A DNA stretch of 64,000 bases from Planctomycetota bacterium. GTDB lineage: Bacteria > Planctomycetota > JAJSAM01 > JAJVHW01. The notes under the pieces were generated by a model, which searched no databases, was not told the DNA's origin, and worked only from the letters and a program-made list of their open reading frames with translations. Made by a program: the position numbers and the translations under genes. The stretch covers positions 591 to 64,590 of the forward strand of contig JAJVHW010000002.1 of NCBI GenBank assembly GCA_022072415.1. The letters are read 5' to 3'. Every line of letters starts with the position of its first letter. The stretch's first letter is position 1. Below are positions 5,648-24,525 of the stretch, in pieces.

Positions 5648-6072
5648 CGTGGTTGTACGCGCTGCTATGGCAGGTCTGCTTGAATGCGGCGGACACCGGG
5701 AAGTTCCGCGCCATGATCGATCAGTACGGGGTGATCGTGACCGAGCTCTACGACGTGAACGTCCCCGATACCTGGAAAAACTCGGAGGGTCGCGTGGGTG
5801 TCATCCTCGGGCTCAGCGAGGCGAGCGCGTCCGGCGTGCCATCGGAGGTCGTGCTCCCGCTTGAGCCGGTCCGCGTCGTGAACGTGAAGCTCCTGACGCT
5901 TGCGGAGCTGGAGTACGCCGCAAAGCACGGCGCCGAGGGCCGCGCGGAGCTCGCGCGTCGCTTCCAGTCGACCCCAGGGGCTCAGCGATCCAGCCTGACA
6001 CGGCCCTCCGTGATCTGACCCCCGGACTAGCCACTGGACGCGACGGGCGCGCGGGCGGCCGGAGTTCCTCCG

Positions 6073-6245
6073 CGTCAACCCGGTCGGCTCAGTTCGGCAA
6101 CTTCGTGTCTGGTCCCCCATCTTCCGGCGTTTCGAACTCCGTTCCGGTATCTGAAGAGTAGGACCCCCGAAGCGAGTCGCCGCGAGGGCCGCGATCACCG
6201 GAGAACGGACCGGCCGGGACGCCCGAAGGGTGCCGCGAACCGAGG
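6073..6245 (+). repeat. arm B copy 2, ending about 5-10 nt from the stop of the next chromosomal gene
   Basis: See 1873..2052. Confidence 0.85.
6117..6139 (+). repeat. 23-bp core, copy 4
   Basis: Exact copy. Confidence 0.95.
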
Positions 6246-6254
6246 GTACGAGCC

Positions 6255-7412
6255 TCAACGCCGGGCGACGAGCACGACGATCTTCTTCGAGTACCCGCTG
6301 AGCACGATCTCGTCCGCGTCGTTGCCGGGGACGAGGTCCGCGGCGATCTGCGTGTGGCCGCGGCCGCTGTCGCGGAAGATCGTGACCGGGTCGTACCCGG
6401 CTTCGCCCTCGACGAGCAGGCGGCAGAGCGCGTGGAAGCCGTAGAGCGCAAGCGGCGCGTCGCCGCCGCGCGTGCCCGGCAGCGGGAAACGGCCGGTGAC
6501 GATGCCGCGAAGGCCGCTGGACTTCCCCTCCTCGTCGATCACGTCGAACTTCCAGCCGCCTGCGCCGTCCCTGACGAAGTGCTGGACGCGGCCCCAGTAG
6601 CCGCACGCGTACGCGCCGCTCGCTTCGTCGACGCAGACGCGGCCGTAGCCGCCCTCCTCCTGATGGACGACCTTCGCGGAACCGGGCCGGTCGAGGTCCG
6701 CGTAGACGACGTCGCCTCCGGCGACCACGGCGAACGCCTCGTGCGGCGCGCGCCCGGCCGGGTCGCGGAGGATCACGACGTCCTTCATCCGGGGACGCGG
6801 GTCCTTCGGCTGCGGGTCGGCGAACGTCCGAGGTCCGCCGTAGGCGAGCGACGAGGTCCAGGTGCCGCCGGCGTGCGGCGTCAGGACGTGCAGTTCGTTG
6901 GCGTAGGTCGCCGCGACGAGGCGCACCGGCCCGCCGGGCGTCGCGGGAGGAACGGCCGCGATCCCGTGGACGTACGCCCCGGCGTCGAAGATGCGCCTCG
7001 CGCGCCAGCCGCCGCCGGCCTTCACCACCTGGACGACGTTGCCGCCGACTCCGTCCTGCCCCGGCTCGTAGCAGCCGGCGTAGATCTCCTCCCCCGGCAC
7101 CTCCGGGTCCGCGTCGGCGATGCAGAGTCCCGTCATCTCGCTGTGGTTCTCGTAGATCACCGCCGCCGCGGGCGCGACGCCGCCGTGGAACGCGACGTGG
7201 ACCATGTGTCCCGCCTGGTCCACACCGACGATCTGGAGATCCGGGTCCGACGAGTCGGGGCGCCCGACCTTCACCGTCTCGAAGCCCGAGTCGCCTTCCC
7301 ACACGACGACCGGCTCCCAGCGGACGCGGGCGGCGGACGTCGCCGCGGGAGTTGCACAGGCGCCGAACGCGAGGACCGGCGCGACGAGGACGAGACTCCG
7401 GATGCGGTTCAT
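6255..7412 (-). CDS. lipoprotein, probable beta-propeller (FG-GAP/VCBS-like) fold
   Basis: GAAGGAGG lies upstream. The signal plus lipobox is LVAPVLAFGAC. Repeated G-rich strand motifs are present. Confidence 0.6.
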   Translation of the reverse strand: MNRIRSLVLVAPVLAFGACATPAATSAARVRWEPVVVWEGDSGFETVKVGRPDSSDPDLQIVGVDQAGHMVHVAFHGGVAPAAAVIYENHSEMTGLCIADADPEVPGEEIYAGCYEPGQDGVGGNVVQVVKAGGGWRARRIFDAGAYVHGIAAVPPATPGGPVRLVAATYANELHVLTPHAGGTWTSSLAYGGPRTFADPQPKDPRPRMKDVVILRDPAGRAPHEAFAVVAGGDVVYADLDRPGSAKVVHQEEGGYGRVCVDEASGAYACGYWGRVQHFVRDGAGGWKFDVIDEEGKSSGLRGIVTGRFPLPGTRGGDAPLALYGFHALCRLLVEGEAGYDPVTIFRDSGRGHTQIAADLVPGNDADEIVLSGYSKKIVVLVARR

Positions 7413-7422
7413 GGGACCTCCT

Positions 7423-8202
7423 TCACGCCGCCTCGAGCGGCACCACCTGGATCGAACCTGTCGCGGGACAGCGCGAGACCGACACGCGGACGCGGTATGC
7501 GGTCCGGACGTTCTCTTCCGTGAGGACTTCGTCCGGAGCGCCGACGGCGAGGATCCGCCCCTGGTGCAGCAGCGCCACGCGGTCGCAGTAGCGCGCCGCG
7601 AGCCCGAGGTCGTGGAGGACCACGACGGCCGCGCACCCGGGGCGCTTCGCGAACGAGCGGGCGAACCCCATCACCTCGAGCACGTGGAGGAGATCGAGCT
7701 GCTGCACGGGCTCGTCGAAGAGCAGGAGCGACGGCTCCTGCGCCAGCGCCTGGCCGACGAGCACGCGGCGGAACTCGCCGCCCGACAGTTCGTCCACCGG
7801 GCGACGCGCGAACTCGCGCAGGCCCATCTCGTCGAGCACGCGCGCGACGACCTCGCGGTCATCGGGCGTCGGCCCGCCGACGAACCGCTCGCGGGCGTAC
7901 CGGCCCATCGCGACGAACTCCTCGACGCTCACCGGAAACGTCGGGACGCACTGCTGCGGGACGACGCCGAGCACGCGCGCGACGTCGCGCCGGCTCATCG
8001 CCGCGACGTCGCGGCCGTCGAGGGTCGCGCGGCCGGACGACGGATTCAGCATGCCGCATAGGCAGCGGAGCAGCGTGGACTTACCCGCGCCGTTGGGGCC
8101 GACCAGACCGAGGAGCTGCCCTTCCGCCACGTCGATCGAGACGCCGTCGAGGATCGGCCGCCGACCGTAGGAGAACCGCAGGTCGTCCGCGCGGAGCCTC
8201 AT
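7423..8202 (-). CDS. ABC transporter ATP-binding protein (iron-chelate/cobalamin FecE/BtuD type)
   Basis: Walker A is GPNGAGKST, the signature is LSGGE and Walker B is LLLFDEP. ATGA overlap with the permease gene. Confidence 0.85.
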   Translation of the reverse strand: MRLRADDLRFSYGRRPILDGVSIDVAEGQLLGLVGPNGAGKSTLLRCLCGMLNPSSGRATLDGRDVAAMSRRDVARVLGVVPQQCVPTFPVSVEEFVAMGRYARERFVGGPTPDDREVVARVLDEMGLREFARRPVDELSGGEFRRVLVGQALAQEPSLLLFDEPVQQLDLLHVLEVMGFARSFAKRPGCAAVVVLHDLGLAARYCDRVALLHQGRILAVGAPDEVLTEENVRTAYRVRVSVSRCPATGSIQVVPLEAA

Positions 8203-9215
8203 GCCTCACCCGCCTTCGACTGCATGGAGCGCACGACGAGGACGAAGCACGGCACGCCGAAGAGCGACGTGATCACGCCGAGCGGCAGCTCGTTCGGCGG
8301 CACCACGGTCCGGGCCAGCGTGTCCGTCAGGATGACGACCACGGCGCCGAGGAACGCGCACGCCGGGAGCAGCGCCGCATGCGACTGCCCCACGATCCTC
8401 CGCGCCGCGTGCGGCACGACGAGCCCCACGAACGCGACGACGCCCGCGAGGCACACGGCGAGCGCCGTGAGCAGGCACGAGAGCAGCAGGACGATCGTCC
8501 CCGTGCGCGCCGTGTTCACGCCGAGGCGCTTCGCGTCGGTCTCGCCGAGCGCGAGCAGGTCCAGCGGACGCGCCAGGAGCATGGCGGCTGCGACCGCCAC
8601 CGCGGTGACGGGACCGATCACCGCGACCTGCCTCCAGTCGGTCTGCCAGAGACCGCCGGCCAGGAGGAGCGCCATCTTCCCGAGCTGGTTCTCGTCGCGG
8701 TGGAGGAAGACCGTGAGCCCCGTCATCGCGCCGAAGAAGAGGCTCATGTTGATCCCCATGAGCACGACGGAGAGCGACGGCAGCCCGGCGCGCGTGCGGG
8801 CGAGCCACAGCACGAGGACCGCCGACACGCAGGTCATCGCGAACGCGGTGGAGATCGCGCCCACCCGCTCGAGGCCGAGGAAGATGCCGAAGACCTTCCC
8901 GAACGCGGCGGCCTGCGACGTGCCGATCACCGTCGGGCTCGCCAGCGGGTTCCGGAGGAGCGCCTGGAGCATGCACCCGGCCGTGCCCATGGCGGATCCA
9001 ACGGCGATGGCGCCGAGCGCGCGCGGCAGGCGCATCTGGCTCACCAGCGTGTCGTTCATCGACGTGCCGGCGTGCGTGACAGCGGCGAAGACGTCCGCGA
9101 GCGGGACGTGCACGACGCCGACGGTCAGCGACGCGAACGCGGCGAGGACCGTGACGACGACGCCTCCGGTGACCACCGCCGAGAACCGGGGTCGCCCGAG
9201 GGCGGCGGGGCTCAT
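8199..9215 (-). CDS. FecCD/BtuC-family ABC permease
   Basis: 338 aa and polytopic. Family-typical motifs are RLPRALGAIAVGSAMGTAGCMLQALLRNPLASP and VVPHAARRIVG. The start ATG at 9215 follows GGAGGGGAG. Confidence 0.85.
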   Translation of the reverse strand: MSPAALGRPRFSAVVTGGVVVTVLAAFASLTVGVVHVPLADVFAAVTHAGTSMNDTLVSQMRLPRALGAIAVGSAMGTAGCMLQALLRNPLASPTVIGTSQAAAFGKVFGIFLGLERVGAISTAFAMTCVSAVLVLWLARTRAGLPSLSVVLMGINMSLFFGAMTGLTVFLHRDENQLGKMALLLAGGLWQTDWRQVAVIGPVTAVAVAAAMLLARPLDLLALGETDAKRLGVNTARTGTIVLLLSCLLTALAVCLAGVVAFVGLVVPHAARRIVGQSHAALLPACAFLGAVVVILTDTLARTVVPPNELPLGVITSLFGVPCFVLVVRSMQSKAGEA

Positions 9216-10135: not shown

Positions 10136-12288
10136 CACCACCTCATCGTGTAGCCCGCGGAGACGTAGTACGCCCGGCCCGGCGCACCCCAGATGCCCTG
10201 GCTGTTCCGGAAGAAGTACTCCTCGTCGAAGACGTTCGTGATGCCGGCCGAGATCTGGAAGCCGGTGCCGTCCTCCTTCTCGTGCCAGCCGATCGAGACG
10301 TCCCACAGCGTGTACGCGGGGTTCATGCCCTCCGTGCCGGTGGAGTTCGGCTTCGTGAAGTTCTCCTGCTGCGCGAACGAGGAGCCGGCCGACGAGCCGT
10401 CGGCGCGGGCCCAGAAACCGTTCGACGCCTCGTACGACACGCCCCAGCTCCGGAGCCGCCGCGGCGAGTACGGCGTGTCGTTGCCCTTGAACGGCCCCGT
10501 CTCGAACACCGACTCCTGGTTCGTCGCCGTGACGTAGGCCGTGAGCCCGCGGAAGTCCTCCGACATCGCGGCGAAGTCGTACGAGAGCTCGCACTCGATG
10601 CCGTCGTTCACCGTCCTTCCTGCGTTCTGGAAGACGGTCACGCCGCCCGCGCCGGTCACCGCGATCGCCTGGTCGGTGAACACGTTGCGGAACGCCGTCG
10701 CCGACGCCGAGAAGCCCCAGTGCCCGCGCGTCCGCATGCCGATCTCGCGCGAGGTCGCGAACTCCGGCTGCACCTCGTTGCCCGCGTTGGCCGCGGGGTC
10801 GAAGTTGTCGTAGTACGGCGTGCGGAAGCTCTTCTGCCGGCCGACGAAGAGCGCTGTGCGCGGCAGGCACGTCCACGCGATGCTCGTGGCAGGGAGGCGG
10901 ACCGTGTAGTCCTCCACGCGGCCCTCGGGACCGCCCGGGATCCGGTTCGTCGACGACATCTGGATCGACTCGAGCCGGTATCCCAGCGTCGCCTGCACGT
11001 TCTCGACGAGGTCGATCGTGTCCTCGTTGAAGAGCGCGACTCCCCGGCCGTCGAACGTGGCGTGCTGCGTCTGCGTGGCCGGCCCGGCTCCCGCGGCGAG
11101 CGGCACGCGCACCCAGTCGTTCTCGGCGTCCTCATGCGTCGTCTGGACGATGTGCGAGAAGCGGTGCGTCATCCCGGCGATCGTCGTGTCCCACGAGTAC
11201 CGCGCCTGGCCCCAGAACGTCTGCGCGTACGTCGGCTTCGACTCGAGCCCGCTGAACGGCGGAGAGCCCGGACGCGAGATGCGGACTTCGCTCGTGACGT
11301 CGGACCACATCATCGTCAGGTCGAACCGGCTCGAGCGGCCGAAGTCGTGGGTCCACGTCCCCGCGTACATCGTGCGGTCGCCGTGCGAGTCGTCGAGCGG
11401 GCGCACCGTGCTCTCCCGATCGCGGTCATAGTCGGCCTGCGGTTCGCCGCCCGGGAGCGACGCGTCGATCAGGTAGCGGCCGACCGTGAAGAGCACCGCG
11501 TCGTCCGCATCCGCCTGCCAGCGGACGCGTCCGTAGAAGTCGCCGATGTCGAACTCGCCGCCGTCGCGATGGCCGTCGCCCCGCTTGTCCACCTGCACGA
11601 GGCTCACGCCGACCGGGCCCCAGGTGCCGCCGGCGTCGAGGACGACGGCCCGGTATCCGTCGCTCCCGAACTTCACGCGCGTGCTGGCCGTGGGCGTCTC
11701 CGGGATCGGCCGCGAGATGAGGTTCACGACCCCGCCCACCGAGTGCGATCCGAACCGCAGGGCCGCGCCGCCGCGGATGGAGTCGATCGTCCCGATGCGC
11801 TCCATCGAGACCGGGAAGAGGTCCTTGTCGTTGAGACCGTACGGCGCCATCGAGATCGGAAGACCGTCCACGAGCCAGCCGACGTAGCGGCCCCGCTGGG
11901 GCGAGAGGCCGCGGGAGCCGACGTTGAGGTACGCCTCGTTCCCCGTCGCCTGCGTGACGTACATGCCCGGCACGCGGCGGATCACGTCGCTCAGGTTCCC
12001 GCCCTGGTACTGCGCGACCGACTCGGCGTCGATCACGTCGCGGGCGCCGGCGTACATGAGCGGCACGCCGCCGCTGGCCGCCGTCACGACGATCTCGCCG
12101 CTTCCGACGTACGACTTCGCCTCGTCCTGTTCGACGAGGAGGTCCGCCGCTTCCTCCAGCGCCGACTTCGGCTTCGACGGAGTGTCCGGCTTCGTCTCTT
12201 CCGCGCGCGCGGAGGTCGCGGCGGCGACCCCCGCGACGGTGGTGAGCGCGGCGGCGAGCATGCGGCGGTTGCTTCGTGTCCTCTGCAA
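10135..12288 (-). CDS. TonB-dependent outer-membrane receptor
   Basis: 717 aa with a signal peptide. The plug motif is IRGGAALRFGSHSVGGVVNLISR. A beta-barrel repeat pattern is present, with an aromatic C-terminus ...YVSAGYTMRW. Confidence 0.85.
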   Translation of the reverse strand: MQRTRSNRRMLAAALTTVAGVAAATSARAEETKPDTPSKPKSALEEAADLLVEQDEAKSYVGSGEIVVTAASGGVPLMYAGARDVIDAESVAQYQGGNLSDVIRRVPGMYVTQATGNEAYLNVGSRGLSPQRGRYVGWLVDGLPISMAPYGLNDKDLFPVSMERIGTIDSIRGGAALRFGSHSVGGVVNLISRPIPETPTASTRVKFGSDGYRAVVLDAGGTWGPVGVSLVQVDKRGDGHRDGGEFDIGDFYGRVRWQADADDAVLFTVGRYLIDASLPGGEPQADYDRDRESTVRPLDDSHGDRTMYAGTWTHDFGRSSRFDLTMMWSDVTSEVRISRPGSPPFSGLESKPTYAQTFWGQARYSWDTTIAGMTHRFSHIVQTTHEDAENDWVRVPLAAGAGPATQTQHATFDGRGVALFNEDTIDLVENVQATLGYRLESIQMSSTNRIPGGPEGRVEDYTVRLPATSIAWTCLPRTALFVGRQKSFRTPYYDNFDPAANAGNEVQPEFATSREIGMRTRGHWGFSASATAFRNVFTDQAIAVTGAGGVTVFQNAGRTVNDGIECELSYDFAAMSEDFRGLTAYVTATNQESVFETGPFKGNDTPYSPRRLRSWGVSYEASNGFWARADGSSAGSSFAQQENFTKPNSTGTEGMNPAYTLWDVSIGWHEKEDGTGFQISAGITNVFDEEYFFRNSQGIWGAPGRAYYVSAGYTMRW

Positions 12289-12842: not shown

Positions 12843-13784
12843 TCAGTCGCCCGCCGCGGCGGCGTCCTCCATCGACGGCGCGTACAGGATGACGACGTTG
12901 TTCGACTCGTCGGATTCGGGGATGCGGTCGTCGGGGTCGATCTTCGCGAGGACGAATCCGGACGCGGGCGTGCGGAATCGGACGGCGTAGTCCTTCGACC
13001 ACGACGTGCGCCGCTTCGGGAACCTCAGGGTGTCGAGGCGCTTCCCCGGCGTCGATCCGTCGTCCGACCGGTAGATGCCGACGATGTACGTCGCCTCTGC
13101 CGGGTCGCTCCCCGCGTTCTCGATGCGGAGCGTGCCGGAGGTGCGGGCGCCCGAGCGCTTCACGGTCCACGAGCCCGTGAGATCCGGGCCCGGCGGAATC
13201 CACTGCCCGAGGTGGACCGAGCCGTCGGCGTAGATGTTCACGGCCGCCTGTACGAAGAAGTTGCCCGCGGACGACTCGGTTCCGCGGAACGCGAGCATGT
13301 ACGTCGTGCCGGCATGCAGCGTCGCGCCCGCCGCGGACACGTCGAACGCGCTCACCGGGACGCTCGAGAGGTCGTAGCCGTAGTCCGAAGCGTCGCCCGT
13401 CGCCGATGCCACCAGCAAGGTCGTATCCGACGTCAGCGGATCGAACTCGTGGACGGCGACCTCGAACGTGCCGGTCGTGCCGTTCCCGGCGCTGATCCGG
13501 ACCGAGATCGACTCGAGCTCGCGGTCGCTCGGCACCGTGAACGTCTGGCCGAGCGCGGTCTCGCGATCGAACCAGTACGCGCCGTTGTAGCCGCCCTCGA
13601 AGGCCCACGGCGCGTTCTCCTGCTCGCCGAGCACGGTGGACGTGATCCCGAACTCGAGGTCCTCCCCGGCGTTCGGGTTCCATCCTTCGAACGCGCCCAC
13701 GGCCACGTCGGGTCGCGGTTGCGCGAGAAAGGCGACGAGGGAGAGCGGCACGACAACTCCCGGCTTCAGCGTGGCGAATCGCAT
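12843..13784 (-). CDS. secreted hypothetical protein with C-terminal CARDB-like domain
   Basis: ATG 13784 follows GAAGGAGG. The signal-like segment is VVVPLSLVAFLAQP. The C-terminus IENAGSDPA...AKIDPDDRIPESDESNN is the CARDB signature. Confidence 0.6.
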   Translation of the reverse strand: MRFATLKPGVVVPLSLVAFLAQPRPDVAVGAFEGWNPNAGEDLEFGITSTVLGEQENAPWAFEGGYNGAYWFDRETALGQTFTVPSDRELESISVRISAGNGTTGTFEVAVHEFDPLTSDTTLLVASATGDASDYGYDLSSVPVSAFDVSAAGATLHAGTTYMLAFRGTESSAGNFFVQAAVNIYADGSVHLGQWIPPGPDLTGSWTVKRSGARTSGTLRIENAGSDPAEATYIVGIYRSDDGSTPGKRLDTLRFPKRRTSWSKDYAVRFRTPASGFVLAKIDPDDRIPESDESNNVVILYAPSMEDAAAAGD

Positions 13785-13921
13785 GGATCGGCCTCCTTCA
13801 GGCGTGGCGGATGCGAAGCTCCGAGCCGGACCCGCGGCCGCCGGAGTGAAGCGTACGTCCCGGCCCATGCGGCCGACGTGACACCTGTTACGCCAGCAGC
13901 GCAACTCGTCGCGGCCGCGGA

Positions 13922-13969
13922 CCATGCACTGTGCAAGGCGTGCCCGCGGCCTCGCTGCACGGCGCATGG
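13922..13969. promoter_or_regulatory. inverted repeat CCATGCactGTGC ... GCACggcGCATGG, a candidate enhancer (UAS) for the sigma-54 activator
   Basis: The arms at 13922-13934 and 13957-13969 match at 10 of 13 positions. The centre lies about 55-60 bp upstream of the GG of the candidate -24 element. Confidence 0.35.
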
Positions 13970-14000
13970 GTCCGCCGCGCGGCGTCGAGCCTGCGAGGCG

Positions 14001-14017
14001 CGGCACAGCCTGTGCAT
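14001..14017 (+). promoter_or_regulatory. candidate sigma-54 (-24/-12) promoter cGGCACagcctgTGCAt
   Basis: GG at 14002-14003 and GC at 14014-14015 have exactly the consensus offset of TGGCACG-N4-TTGCW. Only the T preceding TGCA is replaced. It lies about 55-65 nt upstream of the porin start. Confidence 0.5.
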
Positions 14018-14072
14018 CAGAGGGCCGAAGCATGCGAGCGACCCGGATCACCGCACCACCCGCAGCACGGAG

Positions 14073-15383
14073 ATGCCCCAGATGACCCGCTTCATCCGCG
14101 CCGCCGCGGTCGCGACCGTGACCGCAGTCGGCACCGCGCCGGCCCTGGCTGAGGACGCGGGGGCGCCGCGCCCCCTGGACAGCGCGTCGAAAGAGGAGAT
14201 CCTCGACTACGCGCGTTCGCTCGAGCGGCGGCTCACGGACATCGAGCGCCGCCTCGCCGAACGCGACGAGCGCGAGGAGGAGTCCGGAACGCTCGCCCGT
14301 GCGATCGACACGCTGCCCAGGGCGAAGGAGTCGGCGCTCGCGTCCGCCGCGGCGTTGATGACCCTCTCGGGACGCGTCGAGTTCGGGTACTCCTTCAACT
14401 TCAGGCACGGCGGCGCCGTGCGCGGCCGGCGCGGCGACACGCTGGACTACAACCAGCTCCGCGGACCGGACGCCGACGAGAACGGGTTCTCGTTCACCGA
14501 GCTCGAACTCGTCGCGGACCGCCCGCTCGACGCGGTCGGCTCCACGGGGTTCCGCGCGGCCGCGGACTACGGCGTCGTGGCCCGGCAGGCGGACCCGGAC
14601 CCGAACTTCGACGGCGGCGGCGGCGCGAACGCGTTCGACATGCGCGAGGCGAGCATCTCCTGGCGTGCGCCGTTCACGCCGACGGACCACGTGGACGTCA
14701 CCGTCGGCAAGTACCGGACGCCGATCGGGTTCGAGACGTTCGGCGGCTACGGCTTGAACTGGCTCGTGACGCGCAACCCGATCGCCGTGTTCGGCACTCC
14801 GACGACGCACACCGGCCTGCGCCTCACGGCCCCACTCTCGGAAACCGCGTCCACGTCCCTCCACGTCGTCAACGGCTGGGAGGAAGTCCGGGACTCGACC
14901 GACGGCAAGAACGTCATCTGGGGCGTCACGCTGGGGAAGTACGACTGGCTCGACTCCACGGTGAACTTCCATGTGTCGTACGGCTCCGTCGAGGGTGCGC
15001 CGCAGGGCGACAAGCGCTCGCTCGCCTGCGCGACGTGGACCGGTCTCCTCGCGACGGATCTCGAGTTCGCGCTCGACGCCGTCGTCGGCCGGCAGCCCGA
15101 CCGGTCCTGGCACGGCGCCGCCGCGTACCTGCGCACGCGCGTCGGTGCGAAGACGACGCTCGCGGGACGTCTCGGCTGGTACGCGGACGAGGCCCTCGGG
15201 ACGGATGGCGCCCGCATCGTGGACCTGACGGCAGCGCTCGCCCACGAGATCGCCGACGACCTGACCATCGCGCTGGAGTACCGTCACGACTTCAGCCGCA
15301 GCGCCGGCACCTATCTCGACTCGGACGGTGATCCGTCCCGGCACCAGGACACGCTGAGCGCCGCAGTGGTCTTCCGTTTCTGA
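14073..15383 (+). CDS. outer-membrane porin (beta-barrel) encoded upstream of kdpFABC
   Basis: The signal is AAAVATVTAVGTAPALAED, followed by a coiled-coil segment and alternating beta-strand pattern. The terminal sequence is AAVVFRF. The start is ATG 14073 or ATG 14082. Confidence 0.7.
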   Translation: MPQMTRFIRAAAVATVTAVGTAPALAEDAGAPRPLDSASKEEILDYARSLERRLTDIERRLAERDEREEESGTLARAIDTLPRAKESALASAAALMTLSGRVEFGYSFNFRHGGAVRGRRGDTLDYNQLRGPDADENGFSFTELELVADRPLDAVGSTGFRAAADYGVVARQADPDPNFDGGGGANAFDMREASISWRAPFTPTDHVDVTVGKYRTPIGFETFGGYGLNWLVTRNPIAVFGTPTTHTGLRLTAPLSETASTSLHVVNGWEEVRDSTDGKNVIWGVTLGKYDWLDSTVNFHVSYGSVEGAPQGDKRSLACATWTGLLATDLEFALDAVVGRQPDRSWHGAAAYLRTRVGAKTTLAGRLGWYADEALGTDGARIVDLTAALAHEIADDLTIALEYRHDFSRSAGTYLDSDGDPSRHQDTLSAAVVFRF

Positions 15384-15530
15384 CCCCGATGAACGACCCG
15401 ACGCGCCTCCGCCTCGCCGACGACCGCCCCCGCGGTCCGGAGGCGGCACGTGCAGGCTTGAGGCGGGACGCGGCGGCTGCGATCGGTCGCCGCGCATCGG
15501 CGGCTTCGGCGACCCGGCAGGAGGTGCGAG

Positions 15531-15620
15531 ATGAGCGTTGAGTACTGGATCGGCGCGATCGTCGCGGTCGCACTGTGCGCGTACCTGGCGTACGCGCTCG
15601 TCGCCGCGGAACGCTTCTGA
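15531..15620 (+). CDS. kdpF: KdpF, small subunit of the K+-transporting ATPase (29 aa)
   Basis: The product MSVEYWIGAIVAVALCAYLAYALVAAERF has the same length and pattern as E. coli KdpF (..YL.YAL...E.F). GGAGG lies upstream. It is not in the ORF track because it is too short. Confidence 0.8.
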   Translation: MSVEYWIGAIVAVALCAYLAYALVAAERF

Positions 15621-15710
15621 GGAGCCCATGAGCAGACACCCCGTCGTCATCCGCGGCGCGCGCGTCCCCCGGACGCACGGCCGCCGCGGCGAGACCCTGC
15701 GGAGGACGTC

Positions 15711-17432
15711 ATGACCGCCGCCGGATGGCTTCAGATCGCGGTGTACGTCGTCGCGCTCGCTGCGCTGACGAAACCGCTGGGAGCCTACATGTACCGCGCG
15801 TTCGAGACGGACGCGCGGCCGTGGCCGAGCGTCCTCGGACGCCTGGAGAACCTGTGCCTGCGCCTCTGCGGACCGCGCGCCGCGGAGGAGCAGACGTGGA
15901 CGGGCTACCTGGGTTCGCTGATGGCGTTCAGCGTCGTCGGGATCGTCGTCACGTTCGCGCTCCAGATGCTGCAGGGGGCGCTGCCCCTCAACCCGCAGGG
16001 ACTACCGGCCCCCTCGTGGCACCTGGCGCTCAACACCGCCGTCAGCTTCACGACGAACACCAACTGGCAGTCCTACGGCGGCGAGACCACGATGAGCTAC
16101 CTGACCCAGATGGCGGGTCTCGCGTGGCAGAACTTCGTCTCCGCCGCGGCCGGCATCGGAGTGGCCCTCGCCCTCGCCCGCGGCCTGACGCGGACGCCGG
16201 GCCCCTCCGGCTCGAAGACGCTCGGGAGCTTCTGGGCGGATCTCGTGCGCAGCACGGTGTACGTGCTGCTCCCGCTCAGCCTCGTCTGGGCGGTGGCCCT
16301 CGTCGCGTGCGGCGTCGTCCAGAACTTCTCCGCGTACGTCGAGGTGACGACCGTCGAGGGCGCGAAGCAGACGCTCGCGATGGGTCCCGCCGCGTCGCAG
16401 GTCGCGATCAAGCAGCTCGGCACGAACGGCGGCGGCTTCTTCAACGTGAACTCGGCGCACCCGTTCGAGAACCCGGGCGCCATCAGCAACTTCCTCCAGT
16501 GCCTCGCGATCCTCCTCATCCCGGCGGCGCTCACGCACACGTACGGGAAGATGGCGCGGGACACGCGCCAGGGGTGGGCGATCTTCACCGCGATGGCTGC
16601 GCTCTTCCTCGCGGGTCTCACGGCCTGCTACCTGGCCGAGTCGCAGCCGAACGCAGCGATCGCGGGTCTCGGCGTCGACCAGGCGGCCGGGAACCTGGAG
16701 GGCAAGGAGGTGCGCTTCGGCGTCGCGAACTCCGCCCTCTGGGCGACCGCGACGACCGCGGCGTCGAACGGTTCCGTCAACTCGATGCACGACAGCTACA
16801 CGCCGCTCGGGGGCCTCGTGCCGCTCCTCAACATCCAGCTCGGCGAGGTCGTCTTCGGCGGCGTCGGAGCCGGTCTCTACGGGATGCTGGTCTTCGTCCT
16901 GCTCTCCGTGTTCATCGCAGGCCTGATGGTCGGGCGGACGCCGGAGTACCTGGGGAAGAAGGTCGAGGCGCACGAGATGAAGGTCGTCACGGTCTACGTG
17001 CTCGTGTTCGCGCTGTTCGTCCTGGTGCCGGCGGCGTGGGCGAGCGTCGCGCCCGGCGGCCTGTCGTCCCTCGCCAACCGGGGCCCGCACGGACTCTCCG
17101 AGATCCTCTACGCATGCTCCAGCGCCGCGGGGAACAACGGCTCCGCGTTCGCCGGACTGAACGCGAACACGCCGTTCTGGAACTGCCTCCTCGCCGTCTG
17201 CATGTTCTTCGGGCGCTTCGCGATGATCGCGCCCTGCCTCGCGATCGCCGGGTCGATGGTCGGCAAGAAGACGTCTACGCCCGGCCTCGGCACGTTCCCC
17301 ACGCACGGGGGACTCTTCGCCACGCTGCTCGTGGGCGTCATCGTCATCGTCGGCGCCCTGACGTTCCTGCCCGCGCTGAGCCTCGGCCCGATCGTCGAGC
17401 ACTTCCTCGCCGCCGCCGGAAGGACCTACTGA
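15711..17432 (+). CDS. kdpA: potassium-transporting ATPase subunit A
   Basis: 573 aa and polytopic. Typical KdpA blocks are [29 protein letters not shown] and NNGSAFAGL. Confidence 0.95.
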
Positions 17433-17433
17433 G

Positions 17434-19485
17434 ATGAGCGTCCACCACCACGAGCGCCCGAGCCTCCTCTCGAAGGAGATCGTCCTCCCGGCGCTGCGAC
17501 AGTCGCTCGCGAAGCTGCACCCGCGGCACGTCGCGGGGAACCCCGTGATGTTCGTCGTCGAGGTCGGGTCGCTCCTGACGACGATCTGGTGCCTGCGCGA
17601 CGCGTTCGTCCCGGCTGCGGAGCGCTCGGCTCCGCTCTGGTTCAGCGTGAACGTGACCGCCTGGCTCTGGTTCACGGTCCTCTTCGCGAACTTCGCGGAG
17701 GCGATGGCCGAGGGACGCGGGAAGGCCCAGGCCGAGGCGCTCCGCAGGACGCGGCGCGACACGACCGCGCGGCGTCTCGCCGACGGACGCGAGGAGGAGG
17801 TCCCCTCCTCGTCCCTCCAGAAGGGGGACCTCGTCGTGGTCACCGCCGGAATGCTCATCCCGGGCGACGGCGACGTCGTCGAGGGGATCGCGTCGGTGGA
17901 CGAGTCGGCGATCACCGGCGAGTCCGCGCCGGTCATCCGCGAGAGCGGCGGCGACCGCTCCGCGGTCACCGGCGGCACCAAGGTGCTCTCCGACCGGATC
18001 GTCGTGCGGATCACGGCCGACCCGGGCCGGTCGTTCCTCGACCGGATGATCGCGCTCGTCGAGGGCGCCGAGCGCCAGAAGACGCCGAACGAGATCGCGC
18101 TCCACATCCTCCTGGTCGGGCTCACGATCGTCTTCCTGCTGGTGTGCGTGACGCTCGTGCCGTTCGCGCTCTACTCCGGAGTCGCCCTCTCGACGACCGC
18201 GATCGTGGCGCTGCTCGTCTGCCTCATCCCGACGACGATCGGCGGGCTCCTCTCCGCGATCGGCATCGCGGGGATGGACCGCCTCCTCGCGAAGAACGTC
18301 ATCGCGGTCAGCGGCCGCGCCGTCGAGGCGGCCGGCGACGTGGACACGCTCCTCCTCGACAAGACCGGCACGATCACCCTGGGCAACCGGATGGCGGTGG
18401 ATCTCGTCCCCGCGCCCGGCGTGGACGTGCGGCGGCTCGCCGAGGTCGCGGCGGCCGCCAGCGCGGCCGACGAGACGCCCGAGGGGCGCTCGATCGTCGA
18501 GCTCGTCCGGACGAAGCACGGACAGGCCCTGCCGGTGAAGCTCGACCGCGCGAAACCCGTGGCCTTCACCGCGCAGACGCGCATGAGCGGCGTCGACCTG
18601 GACGGCAGGGTGCTCCGCAAGGGCGCCGTGGACGCCGTCCGCGATCACGTCGCCGCCGCGGGCGGAGCGATGTCGCGCGAGATCGTCGAGGCCGCCGACC
18701 GGATCGGGGACCAGGGCGGAACGCCGCTCGCCGTCGCGGAAGGCAATCGCGTCCTCGGTCTCGTCCATCTGAAGGACGTGGTCAAGATGGGCATCCAGGA
18801 GCGCTTCGCGCGCCTTCGCGCGATGGGCATCCGGACCGTGATGGTCACGGGAGACAACCGCCGCACGGCGGCGTCGATCGCCAGGGAGGCCGGCGTCGAC
18901 GACTTCCTCGCCGAGGCAACTCCGGAGCGCAAGCTCGCGCTCATCAAGGAGGAGCAGGGGAAGGGCAAGCTGATCGCCATGACCGGCGACGGCACCAACG
19001 ACGCGCCCGCGCTCGCCCAGGCGGACGTGGGCGTCGCCATGAACACCGGCACGCAGGCCGCGAAGGAAGCCGGGAACATGGTCGATCTGGACAGCGACCC
19101 GACGAAGCTGCTGGAGGTCGTCGAGGTCGGGAAGCAGCTCCTCATGACGCGCGGCTGCCTGACGACCTTCTCGATCGCGAACGACGTCGCGAAGTACTTC
19201 GCGATCCTGCCGGCGATGTTCATGGCGGTCTTCCCGGAGATCGCGCCGCTCAACGTCATGGGGCTCGCGTCGCCCTACTCCGCGGTGCTCTCCGCCGTCG
19301 CCTTCAACGCGCTGATCATCGTCCTGCTGATCCCCCTCGCGCTCCGCGGCGTGAAGTACCGCCCGCTCGGCGCAGCGGCGCTCTTCCGACGCTCGATGCT
19401 CGTCTACGGGCTCGGCGGCGTCGTCGCGCCGTTCGTCGGGATCAAGCTCATCGATCTGGGCCTCGTGGCCCTGGGACTGGTGTGA
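17434..19485 (+). CDS. kdpB: potassium-transporting P-type ATPase subunit B
   Basis: The phosphorylation motif is DKTGTIT, with TGDN and [18 protein letters not shown] also present. Confidence 0.95.
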
Positions 19486-19487
19486 CC

Positions 19488-20093
19488 ATGATGCAGCACG
19501 TCTCGACTTCGCTCCGGACCGCCGCGGTGACGATCGTCCTCACCGTCGCCTACACGCTGGTGGTCACGGCGGTCGCGCAGCTCCTCCTGTCCCGCCAGGC
19601 GGACGGGAGCGTCATCACGGACCAGCGCGGCGGCGCGGTCGGATCCGAGCTCATCGGGCAGACCTTCACGGACGCGGCGTACGTCCACTCGCGTCCGTCC
19701 GCCGCCGGCGGCGGATACGACGCGGCGGCTTCGTCCGGCTCGAACCTCGGCACGACCTCGGCGGCGCTCCGCGAGAGAGTCTCGGCCGCCGTCGAGAAGC
19801 TCCGGGCCGCGAACCCGGACGCTCCCGGCCCGGTCCCCGCCGAGCTCGTCACCGCGTCGGGCAGCGGCCTCGACCCGCACATCTCGCCCGCGGCGGCCGA
19901 GTGGCAGATCCCGCGGATCGCCGCCGCGCGCAAGGTCGCGGTCGAGCGCGTGCGCGCGGTCGTCGCCGAGCACGTGGAGGGCCGCGCGCTCGGTCTCTTC
20001 GGCGAGCCGCGCGTCAACGTCCTCCGCCTGAACCGGGCGATGGACCAACGCTTCGGTCCGCCGCGCGGCGGCGCGAACATGTCTCCCAAGTGA
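19488..20093 (+). CDS. kdpC: potassium-transporting ATPase subunit C
   Basis: It has an N-terminal TM helix, SGSNLG and VTASGSGLDPHISP motifs. Confidence 0.9.
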   Translation: MMQHVSTSLRTAAVTIVLTVAYTLVVTAVAQLLLSRQADGSVITDQRGGAVGSELIGQTFTDAAYVHSRPSAAGGGYDAAASSGSNLGTTSAALRERVSAAVEKLRAANPDAPGPVPAELVTASGSGLDPHISPAAAEWQIPRIAAARKVAVERVRAVVAEHVEGRALGLFGEPRVNVLRLNRAMDQRFGPPRGGANMSPK

Positions 20094-21262
20094 CCCACGT
20101 CCCGACGCCTCCGCTCCGCCCCCGCTCCGAGGACTTCCTCGAGCTGGTCCAGCGCGCCAAGCGCGGACGGCTGAAGCTCTACATCGGCTTCGCGGCGGGC
20201 GTCGGGAAGACCTACCGCATGCTGGAGGAGGCCCACGCGCTGCGGAAGCGCGGCGTGGACGTCGTGCTCGCGTTCATCGAGACGCACGGCCGCACGGAGA
20301 CGCAGGCGCTGGTCGCGGGACTCGAGGTCGTGCCGCGCCGGCGGGTCGTCTACCGGGACGTCGCGGTCGAGGACATGGACCTCGACGCCGTGCTCGCGCG
20401 GCGCCCGCAGGTCGCCGTGGTGGACGAGATCCCGCACACGAACGTGCCGGGAGCGCGCCATCGCCGCCGCTGGGAGGACGTGGTCGAGCTCCTCGACGCG
20501 GGCATCAACGTCATCGGCGCGCTGAACATCCAGCACCTGGAGAGCCTGAAGGACCTCGTCGAACGCGCGACGGGCGTCGCGATCCGCGAGACGGTGCCGG
20601 ACGCCTTCCTGCGGAAGGCGGACCAGGTCGTCAACCTGGACCTCGCCGTCGAGGACCTTCTCGACCGCCTCCGCGCGGGGAGGATCTACGCGCCGGAGAA
20701 GGTGGCGCAGGCGCTCGGCGAGTTCTTCCGCGACGAGAACCTCCGCACGCTCCGCGAGCTCGCGCTGCGAGAGGTTGCGGAGAGCCTCGGACGGGAAGGG
20801 GACGACCGGTCGCCGTCGAGCCCCGACGAACGCGGCGGCGCGACCCGCGGGCGGATCCTCGTGTGCATCGCATCGCGCTCCCCGCGCGCGAACGAGCTTC
20901 TCCGCCGCGGATCGCGGGTCGCCGGCCGCCTGAACACCGACTGGTACGTGGCGTTCGTCGAGACCGCGAAGGAGTCGCCGACGACCATCGACGCGGAGAC
21001 GCAGCGGCACCTGATCGCCACCATCCAGCTCGCCCGCGACCTCGGCGCGGAAGTCGTGAGGCTCAAGGGACAGGATCCGGCGGCCACGATCCTCGACTTC
21101 GCGCGCGCGCACGGCGTCGGACACATCATCCTCGGGCGGTCCCGCAGGCCCTGGTGGCGCCGGCTGGTCGGTGGGTCCGTCGCGGACCGGCTGATCCGGG
21201 AGGGGCGCGAATTCGACGTGCAGCTCGTCGCGGACGCCGACGCCGCGGAGCCGCGCGGATGA
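20090..21262 (+). CDS. stand-alone KdpD N-terminal sensor domain plus USP domain protein (no kinase core)
   Basis: The GTG start overlaps the kdpC stop (GTGA). Motifs are LKLYIGFAAGVGKTYRML and NIQHLESL, then a USP-like half (ILVCI...GHIILGRS). It ends at 21262 with no TM or HisKA region. Confidence 0.85.
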   Translation: MTHVPTPPLRPRSEDFLELVQRAKRGRLKLYIGFAAGVGKTYRMLEEAHALRKRGVDVVLAFIETHGRTETQALVAGLEVVPRRRVVYRDVAVEDMDLDAVLARRPQVAVVDEIPHTNVPGARHRRRWEDVVELLDAGINVIGALNIQHLESLKDLVERATGVAIRETVPDAFLRKADQVVNLDLAVEDLLDRLRAGRIYAPEKVAQALGEFFRDENLRTLRELALREVAESLGREGDDRSPSSPDERGGATRGRILVCIASRSPRANELLRRGSRVAGRLNTDWYVAFVETAKESPTTIDAETQRHLIATIQLARDLGAEVVRLKGQDPAATILDFARAHGVGHIILGRSRRPWWRRLVGGSVADRLIREGREFDVQLVADADAAEPRG

Positions 21263-23097
21263 GCCTGCGCGCCAAGCTCCTCCTCGCCCAGGTGCCGCTG
21301 CTGGCGGCGCTCGTCCTCCTCGCAGTCGTCGCGATGACCGGGACCACCGCCGTGGCCCGCGCGTCCGACCGCATCCTCTTCGAGAACTACCGCACGGTCC
21401 TCTACGTGCAATCGATGAACGAAGCCGTGGAGCGCATCAACGAACTCGCAGGGACGGACCGGGGCGGCGCCGGCGCGGCAGACGCGCGCGAGCCCCACCG
21501 GAGCGCCTTCGAACTCGCCCTCGCCGGACAGGAGGACAACCTCACGGAGCCAGGCGAGGGGGAAGCGACGCGCGACCTGAGGTCCGCGTGGGAGGAGTGG
21601 CTCGGGGAGCTCGACGCCCTGCGGCGGACCGGGGACGCGGAGCGCGCGCAGGCGTTCGACGTGCGCGCGCGGCCGGTGTTCGTCCGCATCAAGGACTCGC
21701 TCGAGCGCCTGCGGACGCTCAACCAGGACGCCATGCGGCGGAAGAGCGAGGCGGCGCAGGCGACCGCGCGGCGCGTCGAGACGATCCTCGGCGTCGCCAC
21801 GGTCCTCGGCTGCGCCGCCGCGATCGCGGCGACCGTCCACCTGACCACGCGCATCCTCCGGCCGCTCGCCCTGCTCGGCGACACCGCGATGAAGATCGGG
21901 GACGGCGATCTCGCGGTGCGCGCGCAGGTCGGGGGACGGGACGAGATCGCCCGGCTCGCGGGACGGATCAACGACATGGCGGAGAAGCTCGCCCTCTACC
22001 GGAAGAGCACTCTCGGGGAGCTCCTCGAGGCGCAGGCCGCGATGCAGGCGGCGATCGACAGCCTCCCCGATCCCGTCGTCGTCATGGCCACCTCCGGCGA
22101 GCTCCTTCACCTCAACCTCGCCGCGGAGCGCGTCCTCGGCGTGGTTCCCGAGAAGGGCGCCGCCGCGTTCGACGCCATGTCCCCGCCTCTCCGGGAGGCG
22201 GTCGAGCGCATCCGGAAGCACGTCGTCTCCGGTCACGGCGCGTACACGCCGGCCGGGATCGAGGAGGCCATCCGCGTCGAGCCGCGTGACGCGGAGACGC
22301 ACCTCATCCTGTACGCCACGCCGGTCTACTCGCTGGACGGAGCGGTCGTCGCGACGACCGTGCTGTTCCAGGACGTGAGCCGGCTCATCCGGTCGGAGCG
22401 CCGCCACACCGATCTCCTCGCCACCGTCGCGCACGAGTTCCGCACGCCGCTCCAGTCCCTCGGCATCGCGATCCACATGTGCACGGAAGGCGCCGCCGGC
22501 GAGCTCACCGCGAAGCAGAACGACCTTCTCCATGCGGCACGCGACGACTGCGAACGGCTCGAGCGGCTCGTCGAGGAGTTCCTCCAGGTGGCGCACGTGG
22601 AGTCGGGCGAGACGCCCCAGCGGACGGCGCCCGTCGATCCGGAGGAACTCGTCCGCGCCACGATCGCCTCGCACGAGCGGGTCGCCGCGGAGCGCCAAGT
22701 GGCGCTCGAGGCGGAGGTCCTTCCGGACCTCCCGAAGGTGTCCGTGGACCGTGAGCGCGTGCTCGTCGCGGTGGACAACCTCGTCGTGAACGCGATCCGG
22801 TTCGCGCCGGAAGGGTCCGTGGTCACGGTGCGGGCAAGGACGGTGGGCGGCTCGATCCGCTTCGAGGTCGAGGACCGGGGACCCGGCGTCCCGCCGGAGT
22901 ACCGCGAGAGCATCTTCGAGCGGAACATCCGCGTGCCGGGGGCGCCGGGGAGCGGAGCGGGGATGGGACTCTACATCGCGCGCGAGAACGTGAAGTCGCA
23001 CGGCGGGAAGATCGGCGTCGAGTCGATGGTCGGCAGGGGGAGCACGTTCTGGATCGAGCTTCCGGCGGCGCCGGAGCCGGAAGCTCCCGCCGCGTGA
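21259..23097 (+). CDS. membrane histidine kinase (2 TM, HAMP, PAS, HisKA, HATPase)
   Basis: ATGA overlap with the preceding gene. The H-box is VAHEFRTPLQSL. The N/G boxes are DNLVVNAIRFAPEG, DRGPGVP and GAGMGLYIA. Confidence 0.9.
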   Translation: MSLRAKLLLAQVPLLAALVLLAVVAMTGTTAVARASDRILFENYRTVLYVQSMNEAVERINELAGTDRGGAGAADAREPHRSAFELALAGQEDNLTEPGEGEATRDLRSAWEEWLGELDALRRTGDAERAQAFDVRARPVFVRIKDSLERLRTLNQDAMRRKSEAAQATARRVETILGVATVLGCAAAIAATVHLTTRILRPLALLGDTAMKIGDGDLAVRAQVGGRDEIARLAGRINDMAEKLALYRKSTLGELLEAQAAMQAAIDSLPDPVVVMATSGELLHLNLAAERVLGVVPEKGAAAFDAMSPPLREAVERIRKHVVSGHGAYTPAGIEEAIRVEPRDAETHLILYATPVYSLDGAVVATTVLFQDVSRLIRSERRHTDLLATVAHEFRTPLQSLGIAIHMCTEGAAGELTAKQNDLLHAARDDCERLERLVEEFLQVAHVESGETPQRTAPVDPEELVRATIASHERVAAERQVALEAEVLPDLPKVSVDRERVLVAVDNLVVNAIRFAPEGSVVTVRARTVGGSIRFEVEDRGPGVPPEYRESIFERNIRVPGAPGSGAGMGLYIARENVKSHGGKIGVESMVGRGSTFWIELPAAPEPEAPAA

Positions 23098-24477
23098 TCA
23101 GTCGGTCTCGAGGCGCTTCTTCGTGCGCCACACCGTCGTCACGTCGATCCCCAGGATCCTCGCCGCCTCCGCCTGCGAACTCGCGCGCGCGAGGACCCGC
23201 TCGAAGTGCTCGCGCTCGATCTCCTTCATCGTGTGGTCTCCGCCGAGCGACACGCGCCTGGGGGCGGACCCCGTCGCCGCCTCGCGGATCCTCTCCGGCA
23301 ATGCGCCGAGCTCGACGACCTGCGCAGGCCACAGGATCGAGATCCGCTCCATCGCGTTCCGCAGTTCACGGACGTTCCCGGGCCACGGGTAGCGGCGGCA
23401 CGCCGCGGCGGCCTCGGCGGAGAGCTCCTGCGCGCGCCGCTTCGCCGCCCTCGCGAAGAACGCGAGGAACCCGTGCGCGAGCCGCACGACGTCCTCCTCG
23501 CGTTCGCGCAGCGGAGGAAGCGCGATCTCGATCACGTTGAGACGGTAGAGGAGATCCTCGCGGAACCGGCCCGCCCTGACCTCCGCGTCCAGGTCGCGGT
23601 TCGTCGCCGCGACGATGCGGACGTCGGCCGAACGCGTCCGCGATTCGCCGACGCGTTCGAACTGCCGCTCCTGGACGAACCGCAGGAGCTTGGCCTGGAG
23701 CGGCGGCGGCACCTCGGCGATCTCGTCGAGGAAGAGCGTGCCTCCGTCCGCCGCCTCCACCCTGCCGGGCTGGTCGGTGACGGCTCCGGTGTACGCGCCC
23801 TTCGCGTGACCGAAGAGTTCGCCCGTGAGGAGTTCTCCCGCGAGCGTAGGGCAGTTCACGACCGTGAACGGTCCCGTCCGCCGCGGGCTCCGGGCGTGGA
23901 TCGCGCGCGCGACCACTCCCTTGCCCGTGCCGCTCTCGCCGCGCAGCAGCACGGTCGCCTGCGAGTCCGCCGCCTGGAACGCCGTCTCCAGCGCCGCGCG
24001 CATCCTCTGCGACTCGGTCGTGAGGTCGTCCTGCGGGACCCCCTCGGCCACGCGCTGCTCGAGGTCCACGATCCGCGCGGAGAGGACCCTGCGCTCCAGC
24101 GCCTGGTTGACGACGTGGCGGACCTGCGCGGGCTTGAAGGGCTTCGCGACGTAGTCCCAGGCGCCCCGCTTCATCGCCTCGACCGCCGTGTCCACCTGGC
24201 CGAACGCCGTGATGATCACGACGAGCAGTCCCGGCCGCGCGGCGAGCAGTCTCGGAAGCACGTCCAGGCCGCTCTCCTCGGCGAGACGCAGGTCGAGGAA
24301 CGCGAGGTCGAAGGGCTCTGCGGCGACCGCGTCCACGGCGGCCGCCCCGGTCTCCGCGGCGCGCACCCTGCAGCCGACGGCCTCGAGGCACGCCGCCAGG
24401 GTCGTGCGGATGTTCCGGTCATCGTCGACGACGAGGGCGTGGAGCCCTCTCCCGACGTCTGCGTGCGCGAAGGTCAC
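23098..24477 (-). CDS. sigma-54-dependent response regulator (NtrC family enhancer-binding protein)
   Basis: The receiver domain has ALVVDDD...DLRL. The AAA+ domain has GESGTGKG, a GAYTGA variant of the GAFTGA loop, and DEI. A C-terminal Fis-type HTH is present ([19 protein letters not shown]). The start is uncertain. GTG 24477 was chosen because the longer ORF runs into a repeat element. Confidence 0.85.
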
Positions 24478-24491
24478 GACGCCAAGCGTAA

Positions 24492-24525
24492 GGCGTCGTC
24501 CCGGAACACCTGACACACTTCGTCA
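24492..24525 (+). repeat. solo copy of the 34-bp terminal inverted repeat family (GGCGTCGTCCCGgAACAcCTGACACACTTCGTCA)
   Basis: It has two mismatches to the reverse complement of 25657-25690. It is flanked on the left by TAA. Confidence 0.85.

Follow-up and report, generated by a model that had tools for sequence, protein, structure and literature searches.

In the Escherichia coli paradigm, the kdpFABC operon of the Kdp potassium pump is controlled by KdpD and KdpE at a sigma-70 promoter. Here we analysed a kdp locus in a stretch of 64,000 nucleotides (nt), hereafter called the window, from an assembly deposited as a Planctomycetota bacterium (GCA_022072415.1, contig JAJVHW010000002.1, positions 591 to 64,590). 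In this locus, a porin gene, kdpFABC, a gene for a short KdpD and a histidine kinase gene were met by a convergent gene for an activator of the NtrC family. The pump and the KdpD N-terminal/Usp module were the same as in E. coli, and induction by K+ limitation or osmotic upshift was expected here as well. In contrast to E. coli, there was no full-length KdpD with its four-transmembrane (TM)/GAF/kinase half and no OmpR-type KdpE, and the promoter appeared to be of the sigma-54 type with an AAA+ activator rather than of the sigma-70 type. We considered it likely that the locus was a sigma-54-dependent K+-uptake module of a myxobacterium (Myxococcota), in which the activator, the kinase, the enhancer dyads and the promoter would work as described below.

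The closest described system was that of Desulfovibrio vulgaris Hildenborough, where kdpFABC is likewise followed by genes for a KdpD-N/Usp protein (DVU3336), a PAS kinase (DVU3335) and a sigma-54 regulator (DVU3334). By DNA affinity purification followed by microarray detection (DAP-chip), Rajeev et al. (2011, PMC3333781) detected binding of DVU3334 upstream of the kdpFABC operon of its own locus (DVU3339.1-3337), and they remarked that the kinase 'appears to be split', the two parts being DVU3336 (K+ sensor/Usp) and DVU3335. In the same bacterium, two more stress regulators target kdp as well (PMC3333781). DVU3334 was also described as a GAFTGA two-component regulator of 'potassium uptake' (Kazakov et al. 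2015, PMC4641369). Since its binding to kdp had been published, this kind of wiring was not new. Unlike in Desulfovibrio, the regulator gene in the window converged on the operon without being part of it, the first gene encoded a BBP2 porin and a Trk-linked paralogue of the regulatory pair was present.

The second relevant system was the short KdpD. According to Silberberg et al. (2024, PMC11018627), the N-terminal domain of KdpD acts as an atypical serine kinase and thereby inactivates KdpB, and the short KdpD/Usp form is typical of Myxococcota. The transcriptional control in species with this form was left open in that study, as a 'separate TCS' (two-component system) or an 'unknown mechanism'. 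Similar to the short KdpD/Usp serine kinases described there (Deinococcus, cyanobacteria, Myxococcota), the protein in the window consisted of KdpD_N and Usp only and was encoded just after kdpC, and KdpB kept the serine of the TGES motif. The separate regulatory system was identified here as a sigma-54 two-component pair.

The third system was KinB/AlgB of Pseudomonas aeruginosa, whose kinase shared with ours the order of TM segment, helical periplasmic sensor, TM segment, HAMP, PAS, HisKA and HATPase, as well as an NtrC-family partner and a similar sensor fold. However, the sensor domains were ~16% identical, and the targets here were K+ importers, not alginate or envelope-stress genes.

Finally, in Myxococcus xanthus, both 0.2 M NaCl and live prey strongly induce kdpA and kdpB, and control by KdpDE was assumed (Livingstone et al. 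2018, PMC5857379). That study placed a third gene with induced expression, MXAN_0162, in the 'same putative operon' and left it unnamed; judging from the Myxococcus loci that we examined, it would be the porin gene. Literature searches yielded nothing that directly connects sigma-54 to kdp or trk in Myxococcus.

A conserved putative sigma-54 promoter and enhancer upstream of kdp

The regulatory elements predicted upstream of the operon were the following.

13925-13935, + strand: first copy of the enhancer (upstream activating sequence), TGCActgTGCA, 76 nt upstream of the -24 GG; predicted activator binding site
13956-13966, + strand: second copy of the enhancer, variant TGCAcggcGCA; this TGCA-N4-GCA variant recurs in relatives (e.g., loci L102, L046 and L050)
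14001-14017, + strand: predicted sigma-54 (-24/-12) promoter, cGGCACagcctgTGCAt, with a conserved counterpart in related loci

An earlier reading of this DNA (the original prediction) had placed a near-consensus -24/-12 element before the porin gene, and such an element was indeed present. In cGGCACagcctgTGCAt, the GG at 14002-3 and the GC at 14014-5 had the exact sigma-54 spacing (GG-N10-GC), and TGGCACG-N4-TTGCW was matched at 9 of its 12 specified positions; transcription was predicted to start near 14026-14027. The core GGCAC-N6-TGCA (14002-14016) was unique on both strands of the 64-kb window, where 0.19 copies were expected. Moreover, the genome encoded sigma-54 itself: the rpoN gene, whose presence the original prediction had left to be checked, was complete (G000:C60), with a 568-amino-acid (aa) open reading frame (ORF) containing the AID, CBD and DBD domains. 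The activator combined an AAA+ domain (Sigma54_activat, 220.6 bits) carrying a GAFTGA-type loop (GAYTGA) with a DNA-binding domain (HTH_8). A simple scan of positions 13650-15750, which is weak in GC-rich DNA, found no sigma-70 promoter or terminator, and an Rfam search of 13500-15800 found no credible riboswitch or leader RNA.

Further evidence came from related loci. We scanned one genome per species carrying KdpD-N, which yielded 80 loci, essentially all of them myxobacterial (including Myxococcus, Archangium, Cystobacter, Hyalangium, Haliangium, Kofleriaceae, Polyangia and Nannocystaceae), and mapped the window proteins onto them by tblastn. The strict pattern GGCAC-N6-TGC, with a background of 0.04 per kb, was found in 35/56 related loci, either directly before kdpF, 130-455 nt 5' of kdpA, or before an intervening gene, 1320-1710 nt 5' of kdpA. 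A relaxed search located a -24/-12 site in 54/58 loci, where it preceded either kdpF or a BBP2 porin gene that came ahead of kdpF. The logo of these 54 sites read TGGCACG-N4-gTGCT, and the positions that the search had left free reproduced the sigma-54 consensus (C4 in 46/54, A5 in 51/54, C6 in 45/54, G7 in 43/54 and T13 in 53/54). For example, two genomes of the same family (G004 and G003) had no porin gene but had kdpFABC and kdpD-N together with the genes for the kinase and the activator, and here GGCAC-N6-TGC was located just upstream of kdpF. The cultured Anaeromyxobacter paludicola (AP025592.1, kdp region within 2211241-2232599) had the activator beside kdp, together with the dyad and the promoter.

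The inverted repeat that had been noticed just upstream of the promoter (13922-13969) was real. Its 14-nt arms (13922-13935 and 13956-13969) were 86% complementary and corresponded to two copies of a conserved dyad, tC(g)TGCA-nnt-TGCAAyC (TGCA-N3-TGCAAyC), located some 75 nt 5' of the -24 element. A strict search placed this dyad 40-170 nt 5' of the promoter in 27/54 loci and a relaxed one in 42/54, against ~0.006 expected per locus by chance (background 0.044 per kb). The commonest distance between the dyad and the promoter was 74 nt, and in the window it was 76 nt. The 6-3-6 layout of the dyad was like that in Desulfovibrio (GTTACAtttTGTAAC there, cgTGCAnnnTGCAAC here), the half-site being TGCAAC here and TGTAAC there. 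The DVU3334 palindrome CGTTACATTTTGTAACG is located at -149 (~150 nt upstream of kdpF), and its better-conserved half-site agreed with the myxobacterial dyad at 5/6 positions; the two regulators were likened by their gene set and layout. Thus, the conservation of the promoter, the dyad and the adjacent activator in related loci, together with the binding reported for the D. vulgaris regulator, supported the proposal that control of the sigma-54/NtrC type stands in for KdpE.

Other elements were observed in the promoter regions of other genomes. Many related loci, including that of A. paludicola, had a conserved hydrophobic micro-ORF of 27 aa between the sigma-54 promoter and kdpF, with the motif M-x-D-L-x-F-x3-T-x2-FFA-x2-W-x-Y-x3-C-[DE]-R-L; it was missing from the window. 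It was located about -200 to -110 before kdpA in L056, L064, L074, L091 and others, and at 20385-20302 on the - strand in the A. paludicola locus (L117), and may encode another small membrane peptide associated with Kdp. Additionally, locus L035 (G028:C3, 16812-17370) contained a dyad, TGCAggcTGCA, and a near-perfect promoter, TGGCACGGGGATTGCC, before small ORFs without a Pfam match; the same genome encoded a full-length KdpD elsewhere and also an activator of the K+-linked clade described below (51% identical).

The activator and the kinase

The two regulatory genes were located at the 3' end of the locus.

21259-23097, + strand: membrane sensor histidine kinase; TM1, ~135-aa periplasmic four-helix bundle, TM2, HAMP, PAS, HisKA, HATPase
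23098-24516, - strand: NtrC-family response regulator/activator; REC, Sigma54_activat, HTH_8, with GAYTGA at residue 240

The domain content of both products was as originally predicted: the convergent gene encoded an NtrC-family activator with a GAYTGA loop, and Pfam confirmed a HAMP-PAS histidine kinase without a KdpD domain, coupled to the short KdpD gene by an ATGA overlap. According to the Pfam matches of the locus genes, no OmpR-type (winged-helix) KdpE was encoded at the locus, and the NtrC-type protein was its sole regulator. The stop codons of the kinase gene (+) and the activator gene (-) abutted at 23097/23098 with zero intergenic bases; therefore, any terminator must sit within coding sequence.

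An orthologue of the activator (54-67% identical) was nearly always found beside the kdp cluster of related loci, in varied positions and orientations. Since this synteny persisted despite rearrangement, it was good evidence of a functional link. In the phylogenetic tree, all kdp-linked and trk-linked activators fell into one clade (95/92 support) apart from 26 generic ones; the same clade also contained three activators of other or unknown linkage. A large protein search with the activator listed only close relatives, which carried the label 'AlgB'. The genes for KdpD-N and the kinase were adjacent in essentially all of the 80 related loci.

The TM segments of the kinase were at residues 2-36 and 172-197, with the periplasmic domain (37-171) between them. 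An AlphaFold model of residues 1-255 (predicted local distance difference test, pLDDT, 93) contained TM1, the periplasmic four-helix bundle, TM2 and HAMP. Foldseek matched the sensor to NarQ, to domains of the Tar/Tsr type and to the KinB sensor domain, with all E-values above 1e-3; the best single-domain match was the KinB sensor domain (PDB 4llc; TM-score 0.82, normalised to the target). Among 34 aligned orthologues, the invariant periplasmic residues were N43, N94, T96, E97, G99, E100, N155 and D157, of which N94, T96, E97, G99 and E100 formed an N-x-TEPGE loop. The best NCBIfam matches of the kinase were WalK, PnpS and PhoR, and both a KdpD-specific domain and the TM/GAF half of KdpD were absent.

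The pump genes, the short KdpD and the porin

The remaining features of the operon were the following.

14082-15383, + strand: BBP2 outer-membrane beta-barrel porin, the first gene of the operon; PF07642, 109.7 bits against a gathering threshold of 26.2; alternative start at 14073
15445-15459, + strand: near-miss of a -24/-12 element, GG-N9-GC, GGCACgtgcagGC, one base short as read from the sequence
15531-15620, + strand: kdpF; TIGR02115, 29.9 bits against a cut-off of 26.85
15711-17432, + strand: kdpA; PF03814, 787.7 bits
17434-19485, + strand: kdpB, P-type ATPase subunit (Pfam); TGES at residues 161-164, DKTGT at 309
19482-20093, + strand: kdpC; PF02669, 229.3 bits
20090-21262, + strand: short KdpD of 390 aa, KdpD_N (PF02702, 1-209 of 210) and Usp (PF00582), without a kinase core

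The start of the porin gene was most likely the ATG at 14082 because the GGAG at 14069-72 was better spaced for it, and the N-terminus of the product (MTRFIRAAAVATVTAVGTAPALA) was signal-peptide-like when read from the sequence. A BBP2 porin gene occupied the same position in 12 other loci, and there the conserved promoter preceded the porin gene rather than kdpF. Thus, the promoter moved with the first gene of the operon, which was the main evidence for the predicted membership of the porin in the regulon. The porin in the window was ~27% identical to those of Myxococcaceae, and KdpA was 60-75% identical in most related loci; the low identity of the porin could reflect either fast divergence or separate recruitment.

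The gap between the porin gene and kdpF was 147 nt, as the original prediction had stated, and its predicted fold was nothing unusual (z = -1.27). The possibility of a second sigma-54 promoter before kdpF was considered and rejected, as the gap contained only the GG-N9-GC near-miss at 15445-15459, and no enhancer dyad was found upstream of it. The distance of this near-miss to kdpF equalled the promoter distance in the porin-less relatives L032 and L033, and it may be a relic of a kdpF-proximal promoter left when the porin came to head the operon. An arginine-rich ORF of 28 codons was also observed between kdpF and kdpA (15629-15714), with an ATGA overlap with the kdpA start; it was probably an artefact of GC-rich DNA.

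The presence of a KdpD N-terminal/Usp protein without a transmitter, coupled to kdpC by GTGA, was borne out by Pfam. The protein had a GVGKT P-loop, and no TM segment was found in it, so it was soluble. The KdpD model PRK10490 aligned to it at model positions 5-376 of 895 only. Its best-scoring model was NF038185, 'KdpD-like non-kinase potassium sensor', with 383.9 bits, under the cut-off of 550. By analogy with the published enzyme, the short KdpD was probably an atypical serine kinase that inhibits KdpB. This was the one KdpD_N match in the genome. The best candidate for a c-di-AMP cyclase (DAC domain) scored 23 bits, below the cut-off, in a genome that was 76% complete. In A. paludicola (L117, AP025592.1), the kdp operon had acquired an aminotransferase gene (14488-15666), which separated kdpC from kdpD-N.

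A paralogous pair beside a Trk operon

A second copy of the regulatory pair was found in the same genome on contig C101 (G000; locus L036, 6996-13819), with the activator at 6996-8483 (+) and the kinase at 10283-8484 (-). The activator was 60% identical to that of the kdp locus, and the kinase was 44% identical over the full length, sensor included. The divergent intergenic region contained TGCAagaTGCAAtcc and, 76 nt downstream, GGCAT-N6-TGC.

10413 (C101): enhancer dyad
10489-10502 (C101): predicted promoter, GGCAT-N6-TGC

The operon behind this promoter encoded a REC-TPR protein, two TrkA-type proteins and TrkH, and no KdpD-N. A relative of the same family without kdp had the same layout before trkA-trkH. 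When the whole genome was scanned for the dyad together with the promoter, only two loci were found, kdp and the trkA-trkH operon. In the tree, the Trk-linked activator of this genome was sister to a kdp-linked activator. Since the pair was located beside a Trk locus without KdpD-N, it would work without KdpD-N, and its predicted regulon was K+ uptake. The C101 locus had the appearance of another K+ importer wired to sigma-54. Next to the pair, there was an IS66 transposase gene (4862-6325).

Discussion

Based on these observations, we propose the following mechanism. The membrane kinase, with its periplasmic bundle, would sense a shortage of K+ or a signal linked to it, be it ionic or osmotic; a periplasmic signal of low K+ or of a linked ionic kind would be the most likely. 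The kinase would phosphorylate the adjacent NtrC-type activator, which would bind the two dyads of the TGCA-N3-TGCA type (13925-13966) and open the sigma-54 promoter at 14001-17 with its AAA+ domain. A single transcript would then start with the porin gene and run through kdpFABC and the gene for the short KdpD to that of the kinase, and since this transcript would include the kinase gene, the circuit would have positive feedback. The porin would let K+ through the outer membrane while the pump is induced. Once K+ returns, the KdpD-N/Usp protein would act as a post-translational brake by phosphorylating the serine of the TGES motif of KdpB, a role that we infer for this organism from the published enzyme.

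A broader and more tentative proposal was that Myxococcota have a sigma-54 'potassium regulon', in which paralogous kinases and activators sharing TGCA-N3-TGCAAyC might jointly switch on Kdp, Trk and a porin induced by K+ limitation. In this regulon, the periplasmic bundle, with its N-x-TEPGE loop and N43/N155/D157 cluster, might represent a new class of direct K+ sensor, and the short KdpD might be only a brake. We regarded this whole set of claims as possible, though not as the outcome to be expected.

A number of points weighed against sigma-54 control of the operon as we propose it. The site in the window, taken alone, was weak, with 3 mismatches to the consensus, and a scan of the window for the full consensus with 3 mismatches allowed was unenriched (47 found against 61 expected); therefore, the promoter site was by itself only suggestive. 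The genome scan for the dyad and the promoter gave 1 hit in the reversed-sequence control against 2 in the real sequence. The proposed single transcript would have to cross the 147-nt gap between the porin gene and kdpF. Moreover, Rajeev et al. did not count a regulator of Myxococcus or Anaeromyxobacter as an orthologue of DVU3334 (PMC3333781). Finally, in a preprint, the sigma-54 promoter predicted at MXAN_0162 was attributed to another activator, Nla28, on the basis of a different, loosely matched motif.

Among the alternatives, the one that survived best was the two-protein KdpD of the original prediction, in which KdpD-N senses the K+ state and gates the HAMP-PAS kinase, which in turn signals to the activator. 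It was in line with the ATGA overlap of the two genes and their adjacency in essentially all related loci, with the statement by Rajeev et al. that in D. vulgaris the kinase is 'split into two ORFs' (PMC3333781) and with the class name 'KdpD-like non-kinase potassium sensor' in NCBIfam. However, the kinase lacked any KdpD-specific domain, including the TM/GAF half, and its 44%-identical paralogue paired with an activator at the Trk operon without KdpD-N, the genome having a single KdpD-N. The job published for KdpD-N/Usp also differed: KdpD-N by itself phosphorylates KdpB on serine, and its short form is typical of Myxococcota (PMC11018627). Thus, the claim that KdpD was split into a sensor and a kinase was not supported in that form, and KdpD-N/Usp was probably not the sensor half of the kinase. 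We considered the two-protein KdpD doubtful; it should be added that the roles of KdpD-N as a serine kinase of KdpB and as a gate of the kinase are mutually compatible.

It was also conceivable, but unlikely in our view, that the pair answers envelope, osmotic or turgor stress rather than K+, and that Kdp, Trk and the porin are outputs of a general circuit of the KinB/AlgB type. Such a circuit would agree with the induction of kdpAB by NaCl and live prey in M. xanthus (PMC5857379) and with the further stress regulators that target kdp in D. vulgaris (PMC3333781). It would also agree with the KinB sensor domain being the best single-domain fold match of the kinase sensor and with the label 'AlgB' given to close homologues of the activator by the Joint Genome Institute (JGI). 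However, this label came from automatic annotation only, and those predicted targets of the activator clade that had an identifiable function were all K+ importers, namely kdp and, in two genomes, trk. Moreover, in E. coli, whose canonical system senses K+, kdp is likewise switched on by NaCl shock, which counts against a general stress circuit.

A fortuitous -24/-12 match, with a promoter of the sigma-70 type and an activator controlling unrelated genes, would fit the mismatches of the window site and the abundance of loose matches in GC-rich DNA, but it was highly improbable given that the promoter and the dyad held their position across ~54 loci from several myxobacterial families, that the element followed the first gene of the operon, that the activator was syntenic and that an (insensitive) scan found no sigma-70-like site.

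We therefore retained sigma-54 control by the adjacent kinase and activator as the best explanation of the locus. Since its core wiring had already been published, the gain was incremental. The extension of this wiring to Myxococcota was new, and three additions to it were modestly so, namely a porin gene heading the operon, an enhancer motif and a paralogous pair linked to Trk.

For Myxococcota, including Myxococcus and Anaeromyxobacter, the comparison fills the gap in the transcriptional control of kdp that had been left open (PMC11018627). The sigma-54 circuit of the Desulfovibrio type appears to be used across this phylum, with a promoter and an enhancer motif that are now defined and can be mutated directly. 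Moreover, the comparison connects an outer-membrane porin, which suggests regulated passage of K+ through the outer membrane, a Trk importer and a conserved periplasmic domain that is a candidate K+ sensor with this one circuit.

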